From Shigella phage ShigP1, in sequence record PQ818763: DNA of 64,000 nucleotides. One strand, 5' to 3'. Positions 1,232-13,729 of this stretch are shown here, piece by piece. The position numbers and the translations under genes were made by a program. The notes under the pieces were generated by a model. It searched no databases. It worked only from the letters and a program-made list of their open reading frames with translations, and had not been told where the DNA came from. The first letter of the stretch is position 1; every line of letters starts with the position of its first letter.

Positions 1232-1297
1232 AAGCTTTAAATACAAAAAGATATTACCCAATATCTGTGGATAACCTGCTCTTAAAATATCTATCCG

Positions 1298-1418
1298 ACG
1301 GATGTTCGAGGAATGTTCCTCTCCCTAGCATCGGCCCCATACGGGAAATATATTAAGATTAGGTTAGTTGAGTCAGAATAACTCACATAGCCCTCCGAAG
1401 AAGGCTATAGGCGTTACT
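1298..1418 (-). repeat. conserved intergenic structured element, copy A
   Basis: About 120 nt shared with 6935-7050: blocks CGGATGTTCGAG, CTCTCCCTAGC, CTCACATAGCCCTC, GGCTATA; three hairpins with compensatory changes between copies. Confidence 0.55.
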
Positions 1419-5366: not shown

Positions 5367-5442
5367 TGGTGCGCCCTACAGGACTCGAACCTGTAACCAA
5401 TAGCTTAGAAGGCTACTGCTCTATCCATTGAGCTAAGAGCGC
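5367..5442 (-). tRNA. tRNA-Arg (anticodon UCU)
   Basis: Hand fold: acceptor GCGCTCT/AGGGCGC, D-arm GCTC-AATGGATA-GAGC, anticodon stem GTAGC/GCTAT with loop CTTCTAA, T-arm ACAGG-TTCGAGT-CCTGT, discriminator A, encoded CCA; 76 nt. Confidence 0.8.
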
Positions 5443-6346: not shown

Positions 6347-6598
6347 TTATTGACTCACACCACGAATCAGATGATTCTGTAGCGTACCGTCTTCTGCATT
6401 ATACAGGAATGCGAACATCAACTCCTTAGCCACATCTCTTGAGCAATTAAGACACTTAGAGATTTGAGTTAGTTGCATGTTACGTTCAGTGTGTTCCATC
6501 AAGGCAATGCGAATGATCTCTCGCATACCTATTACATGAACTGTTTTAACCGGCATAGGTCCAATTACCTTGCTTGTTACGAATGGCTGACATTGCAT
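6347..6598 (-). CDS. hypothetical protein (83 aa)
   Basis: ORF track only; start codon uncertain. Confidence 0.4.
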   Translation of the reverse strand: MQCQPFVTSKVIGPMPVKTVHVIGMREIIRIALMEHTERNMQLTQISKCLNCSRDVAKELMFAFLYNAEDGTLQNHLIRGVSQ

Positions 6599-6934
6599 GA
6601 ATCCAGAAGCCTTCCAGTTTCAGAGCACCATTAGCTACTGCATCCATACGTTCAGGGCGGTTCATACGTTTGGTTGATACTTTCATACCTATCTCTCTTT
6701 GTTAGTGGAGGCATTATTGCCAGTTGATATAAGGGATAGCCCTAGTCAGTAGACTAATCCTGACCGCGTACTCATTGCCGACCTTCTCTGCCTAAGAGTT
6801 CAGGTTCTAGAGCTATCTCTTATTCCAACTGGTGAAGACTCCCTACCCCTAGGAAGTCTCCTGAATCCCAAACCAATATGTACCCCTACATATTAGAAAG
6901 TCTTTTCGAAAATTAACAGGTTTTAGTCTAACAC

Positions 6935-7050
6935 CGGATGTTCGAGCAAGCTCTCCCTAGCGGTGTGGCATATGCCTGAATTAATAAGTTAATGAGGAAC
7001 ACCCTCACATAGCCCTCTGATAAACACAAGGGCTATAAGTCGGTGTTACT
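6935..7050 (-). repeat. conserved intergenic structured element, copy B
   Basis: Second copy of the 1298-1418 element; hairpins TGAGG/CCTCA and ATAGCCC/GGGCTAT covary with TGAGT/ACTCA and ATAGCC/GGCTAT in copy A. Confidence 0.55.
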
Positions 7051-7264
7051 TTTGGGATAAACACAGATCAGGACGGGGCATAACAGTGGTTGATAAACCG
7101 AAGACTTCAACAGAACCACTGCTCAAGTTAGCAGCCTTACACAAACCATCAGGGGTTTTATCTTCTAACATCAGCCAGAAACGTCTGTCGTAAGAGAAAA
7201 CATCACCACTTTTAATATCTTCTGCATTTGCATATTTAGGATAATCAACTACTTTAATTTCCAT
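7046..7264 (-). CDS. small protein, paralog family 1
   Basis: ORF track; IKSGDVFSY and ANLSSGS motifs. Confidence 0.5.
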   Translation of the reverse strand: MEIKVVDYPKYANAEDIKSGDVFSYDRRFWLMLEDKTPDGLCKAANLSSGSVEVFGLSTTVMPRPDLCLSQK

Positions 7265-8734: not shown

Positions 8735-9636
8735 TTACCACTCGTAACTTACACCAGCGCCCAGAACAGCGTCACTCTCTGAAGTCATTGCCACTGATGC
8801 TTTAGTTACTACGTTTTCATTGAAACGAGCACTAACACCAATAGCAAGAGCAGATTCACCATCGTAAGCACCTACCCCAGCACCAACAGAGAAAGCAGAT
8901 CCTTGACTTACTTGCGGGATGTTAGCCATTGCAGCCACGCCAGAAATACCAGCAGAGGCATGATCACGGTTACGGTCTACTTGTTTTTGCAAAGAAGCAA
9001 AACGTTTGTTGGTGGATTGTTCCAGAGCTTTGATAGATTTGGCGTTAGCATTAACGGCAGACATATCTGCATCTTTACCATTTTTGCCATTTAATCCGTC
9101 AACGCCATTCAAACCTGCTGCACCAGTTAGGCCAGTTTCGCCTTTCTTACCATCTGCACCAGAATCACCTTTTTCACCTTGAGCGCCATCTTTACCATCA
9201 ATGCCATCTTTACCATTGATGCCATCTTTACCATCAATGCCATCTTTACCATCAATGCCATCTTNNNNNNNNNNNNNNNNNNNNNNNNNNNNNNNNNNNN
9301 NNNNNNNNNNNNNNNNNNNNNNNNNNNNNNNNNNNNNNNNNNNNNNNNNNNNNNNNNNNCAATGCCATCTTTACCATCAATGCCATCTTTACCATCAATG
9401 CCATTAGTACCATTGATGCCAGCCGATCCAGTATCACCTTTTAAGCCCTGCTCTCCGCGATCACCCTTGTCACCTTTCGGACCTTGTTCGCCTTGAATAC
9501 CCTGTTCTCCTTTATCACCTTTCGGCCCCTGCTGGACTTCACACTGTTTAGAGTGTGAGCATTTGTCAGAATGAGCAAAGGATGGGGCACTAATGGCAGA
9601 TAAAACTAGAATAGCTGACAATGCAAATGCTTTCAT
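8735..9636 (-). CDS. secreted collagen-like protein with YadA-type C-terminal anchor (trimeric-autotransporter-like); interrupted by assembly gap
   Basis: Signal peptide MKAFALSAILVLSAISAPSFA; G-X-Y triplets on both sides of the N-run; (IDGKDG)n encoded by an 18-bp tandem repeat; C-terminus GISGVAAMANIPQ...VGAGVGAYDGESALAIGVSARF...LGAGVSYEW matches the YadA anchor pattern; track ORFs 9127-9708 and 8735-9112 are the two halves put out of frame by the gap. Confidence 0.6.
9185..9410 (-). repeat. 18-bp tandem repeat (CATTGATGGTAAAGATGG on the coding strand) with N-run 9265-9359 inside
   Basis: At least 4 copies left of the gap and about 3 right of it; the gap is flanked by identical repeat units. 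Confidence 0.85.
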
Positions 9637-11007: not shown

Positions 11008-11044
11008 ATAAAAGAAAAGGCGCTACCCGTTAAGATAGCGCCTT
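11008..11044 (-). terminator. rho-independent terminator (minus strand)
   Basis: 9-bp stem AAGGCGCTA/TAGCGCCTT followed by TTCTTTTAT on the minus strand, after the stop of 11067-11975. Confidence 0.5.
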
Positions 11045-11066: not shown

Positions 11067-11975
11067 TTATGCCGCCTGACGTGCCGCCATAATTTCAGCC
11101 GCTTTACGCAATACTTCTTCCTCTTCTGCTTTCGCCGCTTGTTCGGTACGGGTAGCAACCGTTGAAGAGATACGACCGCGCAGACTTTCTAACTTCTCCT
11201 GCATAGCTGCAACAGTCTTTTCCATTTCATCAGCGTATGAATCGAGTGATTCTAATTCCTTGCTTGATGCGTTCATCAGATAATCATCCGAGATCGCTAC
11301 CGTCGAGGCCGTGATTTTCTTGATGAGTGAATCAAAGGACTTTTTAACCTTCCCAACTTCTTCACTCAGGGCGATAGTGTTATCGCTGGTTGCGCCGTTG
11401 CGCTCATCAGCCAGTAATTTGGCTTCAATACGGATTGCATTCAAGCGTTCAACCAAAGCGTAAATATCCTGATTAAAATCTTCCTTGTTTTTCGCCGGAA
11501 TTTGCAGGTGTGCCGCCACGTTGTCATTGCAACCTTTGTAGAAGTTAGGATTATCCACTTCAATTGCACGACCTAATGCAAAGTTTTCGAAAGCGTTTGA
11601 CCAGCGGGCACGGTTTTGCTCCATTTTGGCTTTAATTTGCGCTTCTTTCGCATCTTCTTTAGCTTTCGCTTCACCTTCCAGATTAATCCACTTCTTACGA
11701 CCATTTGACGCATCAGTGTTAAACTTGATAGGAGTTAAGAAAGTGATCGCGGTGGCAATAACATCCATATCGCGGAAACGTTCGGTTAACAGGAAGTCAA
11801 CCGCCGCCTGCAATACATCTAACTTCTTACCGTTGCTACGAAAGTGCTGCAAATGACCTAACAGGAAGTTAGAAACATCTTGTTTGATCGCTGCATTATT
11901 GCTACGGATATTGTTAGCCAGAGCATTAAAACCAGATTCGTTAACCAGAGTAAAGATTTTAGCCATAATATTCAC
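11067..11975 (-). CDS. hypothetical protein (302 aa), coiled-coil rich C-terminal half
   Basis: ORF track; no recognised motif. Confidence 0.5.
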   Translation of the reverse strand: MNIMAKIFTLVNESGFNALANNIRSNNAAIKQDVSNFLLGHLQHFRSNGKKLDVLQAAVDFLLTERFRDMDVIATAITFLTPIKFNTDASNGRKKWINLEGEAKAKEDAKEAQIKAKMEQNRARWSNAFENFALGRAIEVDNPNFYKGCNDNVAAHLQIPAKNKEDFNQDIYALVERLNAIRIEAKLLADERNGATSDNTIALSEEVGKVKKSFDSLIKKITASTVAISDDYLMNASSKELESLDSYADEMEKTVAAMQEKLESLRGRISSTVATRTEQAAKAEEEEVLRKAAEIMAARQAA

Positions 11976-12786
11976 CTTTCAATTGTAAGGGCGCTATTGC
12001 CCCGCTCTCTATGAGCAATTCAAGTCACTATTGACTTAACTATAACCACTCATTGTAAGTAGTTATAGGTAAGCGGGGCGGTCTTATCAGGAGTTAACCT
12101 TGCCGCCCCCTTATCCGTGATGTTTCATCTGGTATCTTTAATTAGTCGCTATAAACGAAGCCGACCTGATAGCGATGATCAATCATCACAATAAGGCAGT
12201 GCGTCCGACTCTAATTAGTTACGTTATTGTAACCGTCGGCAATATCGTTTACTTTGCTTTCGCTCTCGCCTATCCTTTTATATCAACTCTCAATCGCTAG
12301 TCATCGCCCACTACGGGATACTATTGCGAAAGAGTCATTGACCGTCTAATGTTCCGACGTTTTATATCTTTCGGCAAGTTTACTACATAAACCGACTATG
12401 TACTTTCATCATAAGATGAATCTCAAGCCGTTCACATCGTAAACGTTCACACTAAACCTTATTGTTAAATAGCAATTTGCCACTTTTTAACCATTCACCG
12501 CCGCTCTCAATTGAGCGTTAATTCGTCGGGATTGCCTACCCTGATTAACTTCTTTCACCGTAGCACCATGTTAGCGATGACCGCCGCTACCCTTAACCGT
12601 GGGCGATTAGCTTAAGTCTTTGCGTGTACTCAATGAATCCGTTTATCAATGGTGACGTTTCCAGTAAGGGAATGTAAAACTGTTTACCCTGATAATTTAG
12701 GGAGTTTTACGCCGTTTTATCTGGTATGCTTTCCGATGGTTATTATCATCAAGCATATTCAACCGATATAGGAGAATGTTTAAATT

Positions 12787-13729
12787 ATTAAAGAGCGGTA
12801 AATCTATCAGTGTGCTTTCTCACACTATGCAACTGTTAGCCGTTGTTACGCTTTTCACTGAAGCGATGATTTGCTTAGTGAGTGCTCATTATGAATCATG
12901 TTGTTTTCGCTGTCAACCGCTTTTTAATCTTTTTCGTCGTTCCCGCTATTGGGAGGATATATCAATCAGCTTTATTTGATTGAAGATTAAGCGGTGAGGC
13001 TTAACTTATGACTCATGTTGTTAAAGAGCGTTTAGCCTTTTAAAGTGTCTGCTAATCACTGTCACATTGAAGGCTTACTGATTCATTAACAGGCCGCCTA
13101 CACCTGAACTAATCGCTGCACTATGTGCCACCTTTCCCGCGATACGTTGATTTGGGAACTAGTTAGCGATGTTTTGCTAACTTGTGGTTAGTATGGACTA
13201 CTTTAACCACGTTTGCAACTCTTTTTATCATCTTCTTTTAATTCCTTTCCCTTATCTCGCGTGAATCTATGCGAAAGGGCAAGATGATAAGTCTGATTTG
13301 TCTTTCAGGGAATCTAGTGCGCTTTCAAGCATTAATCTTTTGAAAGTATCGAACAAATAAGGCTTATTGATATTGCTTATTGTCCGCCTGCGTCACGTAT
13401 GAATCAGGAATCAATTCTACCGATTAACTGAGCGCCTTATAGTAATGACGTCGCCGCCACCCGTAAGACAAATCATATTTTTAAAGAGCGGGATTTTTTA
13501 AGTCATCGCTGACTATGCTCACTATATATCAGGCTGTTTTCGGTGTCAATACTCTTTTTAAGAATATTTTCACTTTCTAGCCTGATTTTTAAAGAGCGGG
13601 GCAAGTTTCCTTGCCTTGTATGTTTTACATCGTACCCGATGAAATGAAGTATACATTAATCAGTGAGGGATGCAATAGGGTAAAACAAAATATTTTAAAC
13701 TTTTTCACTATAGGAAGGTAAAAGAGCGG
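12787..13729 (+). repeat. five dispersed copies of the motif TTTAAAGAGCGG in an ORF-poor region
   Basis: Copies at 12787-12798, 13020-13031, 13480-13491, 13588-13599, 13718-13729, all in the same orientation; copy 4 is followed by a GGCAAG-TTTC-CTTGCC hairpin. Confidence 0.6.

Follow-up and report, generated by a model that had tools for sequence, protein, structure and literature searches.

Two paralogous copies of a phage-specific structured RNA domain in the early operon of phiEco32-like phages

What do two similar intergenic segments on the minus strand of Shigella phage ShigP1 encode, and what might they do for the phage? The window analyzed here, a stretch of 64,000 nucleotides (sequence record PQ818763), comes from a phiEco32-like Kuravirus. 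A preliminary description had listed sequence blocks shared by the two segments, as well as three hairpins differing by compensatory changes, and had proposed a functional RNA structure. All of the listed blocks and hairpins were found. A covariance model was built from 12 A-type sequences with a hand-drawn structure. This model, made only from copies of the first segment (copy A), scored the second (copy B) at 49.5 bits with an E-value of about 1e-8, which confirms the duplication, and it detected nothing else in the 64-kb window at E<0.01. A weaker plus-strand match at 1378-1460, overlapping copy A (20.1 bits, E 0.05), is in our reading the reverse complement of the P1 hairpin. Copies A and B are paralogous copies of one phage-specific structured RNA domain of about 125 nt with five helices, P1-P5 (Table 1), and core lengths range from 124 to 138 nt. 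Beyond what had been described, the domain comprises P3, P4, and an invariant internal loop; copy A also has a helix P6, a double DnaA box, and terminators.

Both intergenic regions are 95-100% identical to those of more than 100 phiEco32-like coliphages. Copy A is identical or near-identical in >100 Kuravirus records, and copy B is conserved in 98 phage records. In phiEco32, copy A lies between phi32_91 and phi32_90 and copy B between phi32_113 and phi32_112, both unannotated. GenBank records do not annotate the element and show only "terminator" or spurious small ORFs at these sites. No description of it was found in the literature on phages 7-11, SU10, SU7, and phiEco32, the primary phiEco32 papers (PMC2587145, PMC3275717) being outside this scope. 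As an RNA family the element is apparently new, its general kind being familiar.

Table 1. Coordinates of the two RNA domains, their parts, and associated features in the window
Feature	Position	Strand	Remarks
Copy A, core	1289-1417	minus	129 nt, 5'-GUAAC...GGAUAGAU-3'; covariance-model score 160.8 bits
Copy A, P1 hairpin	1386-1409	minus	10 bp, cUUCGg tetraloop on the variable top; U.G pairs on this strand only
Copy A, P2 hairpin	1369-1385	minus	UGAGU-UAUUCUG-ACUCA; double changes U-A / G-C / C-G
Copy A, J2/3 strand	1346-1368	minus	ACUAACCUAAUCUUAAUAUAUUU; 5' strand of long-range helix P6
Copy A, P3 mini-hairpin	1336-1345	minus	CCC-GUAU-GGG; C-G to G-C swaps at 2/3 pairs
Copy A, P4, invariant loop, and P5	1295-1334	minus	GCUAGGG.. 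/ ..AACAUCCG; variable P5 tetraloop
Linker, P6 3' strand (A only)	1272-1294	minus	Overlaps the weak DnaA box
Double DnaA box (A only)	1266-1285	minus	TTAAGAGCA-gg-TTATCCACA; perfect consensus 9-mer
T1 (A only)	1245-1266	minus	AU-rich hairpin AGAUAUU-GGGU-AAUAUCU + U5; absent in 7-11
T2, intrinsic terminator (A only)	1207-1231	minus	GACUCUU-UUCG-GAGAGUC, then C U6; followed by RBS and ATG at 1187
Copy B, core	6926-7049	minus	124 nt; 49.5 bits, E 1.4e-8, with the model from A copies only
Copy B, P1	7008-7037	minus	Within 6993-7037
Copy B, P2	6993-7007	minus	Within 6993-7037
Copy B, P4, invariant loop, and P5	6931-6966	minus	P4 ACACCG/CGGUGU, P5 GAG-CUUG-CUC; A-U to U-A compensation in Suseptimavirus B
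Two hairpins (B only)	6875-6894, 6834-6861	minus	Loop UAGGGGUA in each; compensatory changes in both stems
tRNA-Arg(UCU)	5367-5442	minus	ARAGORN; between copies A and B, same operon

Between P4 and P5 lies an invariant, symmetric, purine-rich 7x7 internal loop, in which GCUAGGG(A/C) is opposite (G/A)AACAUCCG. The nucleotides of this loop and of the junction are invariant across A, B, and 7-11. The lower P1 stem (UAUAGCC/GGCUAU(G)) is likewise invariant, and the top of P1 (4-16 nt) and the P5 loop vary, a pattern that is aptamer-like.

The copies used for the covariation analysis came from annotated phages (L001-L003, L013-L016), IMG/VR, and metagenomes, with a total of 41 found, 37 of which were distinct. 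The alignment, fitted to the model, represents about five lineages: Kuravirus A, Suseptimavirus A, the 7-11 group, Kuravirus B, and Suseptimavirus B. Standard pairs made up 97.9% of the cells in the 37 distinct sequences, compared with 85% in column shuffles and 34-47% when the partners were slid by 1-3 columns, and the covariation score was 0.341 (0.123 in shuffles). The preliminary description had staked its proposal on further copies and covariation in related genomes, and both were found. Double changes were detected at 11/27 pairs, among them 3/4 P4 pairs and 2/5 P5 pairs, with every helix represented save the invariant lower P1 stem. The compensatory changes first noted between the two copies are real and extend to further helices. 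For P2, the versions are UGAGU/ACUCA, UGAGG/CCUCA, and GAGC/GCUC; for P3, CCC/GGG, GCC/GGC, and GGC/GCC; for P4, CCGA/UCGG, UUCGG/CCGAA, ACACCG/CGGUGU, and UCACCG/CGGUGA; and for P5, GAGG(A)/(U)CCUC, GAGC/GCUC, and GAGA/UCUC. The bases flanking P5 also co-vary (A.G 22, C.A 12, A.A 3, C.G 0), with switches within each lineage; we take this to fit a non-Watson-Crick pair of the sheared type. Such an isosteric-type switch between A.G and C.A would be hard to explain at the DNA level.

Of the two strands, the minus strand is the RNA strand. It is the more stably folded relative to shuffled sequences (z -2.1 and -2.4), in contrast to the plus strand (z -0.3 and -1.7), and several of its conserved pairs are U.G, pairs that would turn into C.A mismatches on the complementary strand. 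It is also the gene strand, and a functional structure at the RNA level, its pairing preserved by covariation, agrees with the original proposal.

Kuravirus and Suseptimavirus phages have two copies each. The Salmonella phages 7-11, SE131, and pSal-SNUABM-01 have one confirmed copy, in a syntenic position upstream of an amidoligase/ATP-grasp cluster. The non-coding block of 7-11 is 69% identical to that of Kuravirus, and the proteins encoded on either side are unrelated. When IMG/VR, metagenomes, and GTDB genomes were scanned for the sequence pattern, only Kuravirus, Suseptimavirus, and 7-11-like contigs were recovered, in addition to one chance match (L046). The element was absent from uncultured phage contigs that encode a closer COOH.NH2 ligase (59% identical). 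It does not follow its neighbor genes: the ORFs flanking A and B show no paralogy, the flanking ORFs differ among Kuravirus, LAMP, Suseptimavirus, and 7-11, and PHROG and Pfam searches with the neighboring small proteins gave no informative family. A candidate second copy in 7-11 (L062:284-377, 16 bits), detected when positions 56.4-89.9 kb of this genome were scanned, was rejected; it does not possess the invariant loop and has no BLAST similarity. The site of this weak match is another long early intergenic region of 7-11 (L062:145-380), which contains GGGGUAGGG, a possible counterpart of the UAGGGGUA loops downstream of copy B. In EcoN5 (L016:8985-10753), a tandem duplication of about 1.5 kb comprises the gp90/gp89 homologs and an identical second element A.

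As first described, the copies directly follow minus-strand genes: each starts no more than 5 nt from the stop codon that ends the preceding minus-strand ORF, and conservation sets in abruptly at GUAAC. In copy B, the upstream ORF ends on the UAA within the 5' GUAAC. The corresponding triplets of the window (1414-1416 in A, 7046-7048 in B) are nucleotides 2-4 of the element. The UAA of GUAAC terminates the upstream ORF in 8 of 14 contexts, and in three more the ORF has an in-frame stop of its own no more than three codons before it. Some phages have UGA for UAA in GUAAC, and there the upstream ORF stops three codons earlier, in frame. The triplet is always followed by C, and the upstream ORFs are unrelated to one another. 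A stop codon followed by C is a weak termination context in E. coli. P1 can be extended (P1a) when the leader, which includes the last codons of the ORF, base-pairs to the loop and 5' half of P2. This pairing is AGUAAC/GUUAUU in A and AACACC/GGUGUU in B, where a change from C-G to U-A is compensated in one lineage. Since P1a excludes P2, and since a terminating ribosome would prevent P1a, a translation-linked switch is possible; that the two pairings act as such a switch is plausible but unproven.

The genes around A and B in the window are all on the minus strand, and the strand of the two copies is the sense strand of the early operon, which is read leftward by the host sigma70 RNA polymerase. 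A promoter scan of the window placed strong minus-strand sigma70 promoters at ~15883, ~13549, and ~12916; these are the counterparts of promoters listed for phage SU10, and the SU10 promoter table contains no more early promoters before the first middle promoter. No sigma70 promoter was found between the early promoters and copy A, either in the window scan or in the SU10 table. Given that there is no further early promoter, A and B are internal parts of one host-polymerase early transcript of ~26 kb, 6-12 kb away from the early promoters. The operon has ~50 early genes and only two element sites. Strong terminator-like hairpins are located at 11044, 9716, and 9686, between the early promoters and copy B. 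The delayed-early block, with homologs of gp90 down to gp69, includes gp79, an inhibitor of sigma70. phiEco32 is a model of phage takeover of host transcription through the sigma factor gp36 and gp79.

The early-promoter region has features of its own. Four copies of CGCTCTTTAA, the boxA core of the rrn and lambda nut antiterminators, were found on the minus (sense) strand at 12788-12797, 13021-13030, 13481-13490, and 13589-13598. All four are inside the 0.8-kb early-promoter spacer, each shortly past a strong sigma70 promoter, and 0.83 copies of the 9-nt core GCTCTTTAA would be expected per whole window. Just ahead of the copy at 12797 is the hairpin AGUGUG-AGAAAG-CACACU, in an rrn-like order. 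These motifs suggest that the early operon may rely on Nus-factor antitermination. The motif is absent from the right end of phage 7-11. A region of ~900 nt (11976-12888) has no long minus-strand ORF; it separates the last early promoter from the first gene downstream (11067-11975). A minus-strand ORF contains a 9-nt periodic repeat resembling GCCATCTTTACCATCAAT at ~9064-9440, interrupted by a run of N (assembly gap).

Copy A does not end with the core. Its J2/3 strand is complementary to the linker, with a duplex energy of -15.7 compared with -6.1 +/- 2.0 for shuffles. The P6 duplex beats shuffles in every A lineage (z -2.4 to -4.7), with sequences that differ: UAACCU/AGGUUA and UCUUAAUAUAUUU/AGAUAUUUUAAGA in Kuravirus, UCUUUUUA/UAAAGAGA in 7-11, and different again in SNUABM and L061. 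RNAalifold concurs. As this complementarity exists in all A lineages, copy A forms a three-way junction of ~170 nt closed by P6. The conserved block is unbroken from GUAAC to the U-tract of T2, with a U/A-rich stretch before T2. The stem of T2, its flanks, its U6 tail, and the RBS are kept in all A lineages, and the records of 7-11 and SU7 label T2 as "terminator"; the stem is conserved in sequence and does not covary. The preliminary description had pointed to the absence of a T-run. This is correct for the core, whereas copy A is followed by two hairpin-plus-U-run terminators 25-85 nt downstream; the conclusion that the element is not a simple terminator stands. The domain shows no conserved pairing with the 5' half of T2 that could serve as an antiterminator; the only complement, AAGAGC/GCUCUU, offers 5-6 bp and is missing from 7-11 and SNUABM.

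Copy B is followed by ~240 nt of further conserved leader, which includes the two UAGGGGUA hairpins. Duplex energies compared with shuffles gave no support for an equivalent of P6 in B, and no terminator was found for ~580 nt downstream. A helix closing the 5' and 3' ends of B (UAACACCG/CGGUGUUA) was considered and dropped in favor of P4, as the U-to-A change of Suseptimavirus has its compensating partner in P4, the leader having none.

The linker of copy A resembles a host sequence. Positions 1285-1266 (minus strand) read TTAAGAGCAggTTATCCACA, that is, two 9-mers that share an orientation and are spaced by 2-3 bp, the consensus TTATCCACA being one of the two; this is the pattern of a double DnaA box, here of the high-affinity type. 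AGGTTATCCACA is invariant in every A copy, including that of 7-11. When the A module was used as a BLAST query against 5426 complete E. coli genomes, one locus was matched in 5423/5426, with 36/42 identity. The match pairs window positions 1246-1287 (minus) with L064:1501-1542, in the treC-nrdD intergenic region, just upstream of the nrdD start codon and antisense to nrdD. The double DnaA box of E. coli nrdD, tTTAAGAACAggTTATCCACAg, was found to be bound by DnaA in ChIP-seq (PMC11317965). Its phage counterpart is tTTAAGAGCAggTTATCCACAg, with one substitution and the same spacing and orientation, and the E. coli flanks TTTTTAAG... and ...AAATTGGGAAAG are also present in the phage. The nrdD regions of Salmonella, Citrobacter rodentium, and another enterobacterium have the boxes only, the E. 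coli flanks being missing. Tracking of the host's own nrdD flank was rejected, as the Salmonella phages do not match the Salmonella flank and 7-11 keeps only the box region. On the simplest reading, E. coli-like DNA was captured long ago as the A linker and would have been retained for its binding of DnaA. The captured segment partly doubles as the P6 3' strand. The A RNA is also complementary to ~35-40 nt immediately 5' of the nrdD start codon; such complementarity might allow an antisense effect on nrdD, for which there is no specific support. Copy B has no E. coli match and no DnaA box.

As for the function, we tentatively favor, at less than even confidence, a factor-binding cis-RNA that would tune early termination or transcript fate. 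The invariant loop and the invariant lower P1 stem would form a docking surface for a trans-acting factor, most likely a protein and possibly a small ligand, and the element would act in cis on its own transcript. In copy A, factor binding or folding would set the fraction of polymerases stopping at T1/T2, which in turn would set the ratio of immediate-early transcripts to delayed-early ones (the block of gp90-gp69 homologs including gp79); DnaA on the adjacent boxes may act as an added roadblock. In copy B, the same docking module would have another output: it would affect how the long leader of the gp112 homolog is structured or how stable it is. This reading is favored by the covarying structure, the invariant core, and the independence from neighbor genes; by T2 and an RBS after A in every lineage with no intervening sigma70 promoter; and by the upstream stop codon inside the element together with the alternative pairing of leader and P2. 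It is weakened by the lack of a conserved T2 antiterminator, by the ~580 nt without a terminator after B, and by the sequence conservation of T2, which fits the 3' end of an RNA gene equally well. A more specific version, which we regard as unlikely, would make the core the sensor of a new riboswitch-like or protein-sensing attenuator class that times the passage from immediate-early to delayed-early expression, merged in A with the captured nrdD DnaA box. If true, read-through into the gp79 block would be tied both to translation upstream and to occupancy by host DnaA (replication status), in a phage without an N- or Q-type antiterminator.

Nearly as likely as the cis-acting attenuator is a pair of processed, stable non-coding RNAs acting in trans, cut near GUAAC, with the A product (~210 nt) ending at T2 and the B product being a processed fragment. 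Such RNAs would bind or titrate a host or phage protein, like paralogous sRNA pairs or the T4 RNAs C and D. This possible role would account well for the continuous A block from GUAAC to the T2 U-tract with its sequence-conserved terminator stem, for the independence from neighbor genes, and for two paralogs that share a core and differ in accessory hairpins; a tRNA-Arg is processed from the same operon, and T4 has two stable RNAs beside its tRNA-Arg. However, B lacks a terminator, T4 rnaC/rnaD are not homologous, and neither sequence conservation nor the promoter scan reveals a promoter upstream. The small RNA of the preliminary description is a possible reading, but no upstream promoter is conserved, and conservation sets in only at GUAAC, abruptly. 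An intercistronic module for mRNA processing or stability is more doubtful. It would be cut by RNase E in J2/3, or by RNase III in P6 or in the P4-P5 rod, after which P1/P2 would shield the upstream mRNA at its 3' end and P3-P5 would shield the downstream mRNA at its 5' end. A very stable P1 directly after the stop codon, 22 nt of A/U-rich, G-poor single strand between hairpins, and a T7-like setting (a long early operon with three strong sigma70 promoters) are consistent with this role. However, generic protection does not need an invariant loop and an invariant lower P1 stem, J2/3 of A is paired in P6, and there are only two sites among ~50 genes. Nothing specific was found for the RNase III-type site first proposed: the rod of P4 (4-6 bp), 7x7 loop, and P5 (5-6 bp) amounts to ~17-19 pair-equivalents, probably shorter than classic RNase III substrates, and P6 could lengthen it in A; two sites for ~50 early genes are unlike T7; and P1-P3 would be superfluous.

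We give little probability to two further explanations. One is a put-like processive antiterminator, in which the nascent RNA would bind its own polymerase and make it resist downstream terminators, as do putL and putR of HK022. Two similar cis copies in an early operon read by an unmodified host polymerase, with terminators downstream of both, would suit this role. Phage 7-11 has also been reported to need an antitermination strategy, left undefined, which would favor it as well (PMC8948821). Yet three strong terminator-like hairpins (11044, 9716, 9686) precede B, the architecture of 125 nt and five helices differs from the ~70 nt and two stems of put (PMC9378689), and the four boxA motifs CGCUCUUUAA just past the early promoters offer an alternative Nus-type route. 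The other, equally improbable, places the function of A at the DNA level or directs it at the host, as a replication origin or priming site, a DnaA sink, or an antisense RNA to the nrdD 5'UTR, with the hairpins being secondary. The double DnaA box differs little from the nrdD site bound by DnaA, the A RNA is complementary to ~35-40 nt upstream of the nrdD start, and an AT-rich stretch follows the boxes. This is hard to reconcile with copy B, where the same core occurs without a DnaA box or E. coli match, and with the U.G pairs and the A.G/C.A switch, which indicate RNA; moreover, there is a single DnaA site, the nrdD flank found in Salmonella is not that of the Salmonella phages, and 7-11 has retained the box region alone. 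Under the favored reading of a factor-binding cis-RNA, the element at the head of the gp79 block would be a concrete candidate control for how the 26-kb early operon of phiEco32 is subdivided and how its terminators are passed. As a well-supported new family, the element joins a short list of structured RNAs in virulent coliphages.

Comparison with known RNA classes gave no direct match. Searching the whole window against Rfam 15 at the gathering threshold retrieved only the tRNA, and permissive Rfam scans of 1150-1450 and 6560-7090, with matches considered up to E 10, gave only chance-level matches, outside the cores. No tRNA-like fold was found in the element, ARAGORN detecting the tRNA-Arg at 5367-5442 alone. 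A hammerhead was rejected, as the position matching A9 can be A or C, that matching G12 can be G or A, and no Rfam ribozyme matched. A CRISPR-repeat mimic, a k-turn, and a sarcin-ricin motif were weighed for the internal loop from its sequence and not sustained. Homology to T4 rnaC/rnaD was also rejected, no covariance-model match being found with filters off. Nevertheless, like the T4 RNAs C and D (species 1 and 2), A and B are two small structured RNAs without a promoter of their own, in an operon with a tRNA-Arg(UCU); T4 rnaC ends in a tRNA-like GGGTTCGAATCCCGG arm, whereas the A/B element is not tRNA-like. As in T7 early RNase III sites, which are irregular hairpins spanning about two helical turns, mutually similar hairpins with an internal loop are repeated after gene ends in a long sigma70 operon, but there are only two sites, and each is a multi-helix domain instead of a single 20-bp rod.

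HK022 put acts in cis on RNA polymerase through the beta' zinc-binding domain. The element resembles putL/putR in that two related cis-encoded RNAs occur in early units read by the host polymerase, with terminators downstream and neighbor genes that are not fixed. It differs in its size (~125-170 nt), in its five to six helices, in its distance of 6-12 kb from the promoters, and in the strong terminators that come before; there is no similarity to put in sequence or at the Rfam level. The put RNA is promoter-proximal, with ~70 nt in two stem-loops (PMC9378689). With attenuating riboswitches and protein-dependent attenuators, the element shares an invariant core and variable periphery, a terminator before the next RBS in A, and alternative pairings. 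Unlike attenuating riboswitches, it belongs to no Rfam class, lies within an operon after a stop codon, is confined to one phage lineage, has no conserved antiterminator overlapping T2, and lacks a terminator in B. Finally, the A linker has the arrangement TTAAGAGCA-gg-TTATCCACA-g, as do the double DnaA boxes of E. coli (nrdD, datA, DARS, oriC R4 type), but the predicted phage site differs from these in being inside a transcribed RNA module and half paired in P6.
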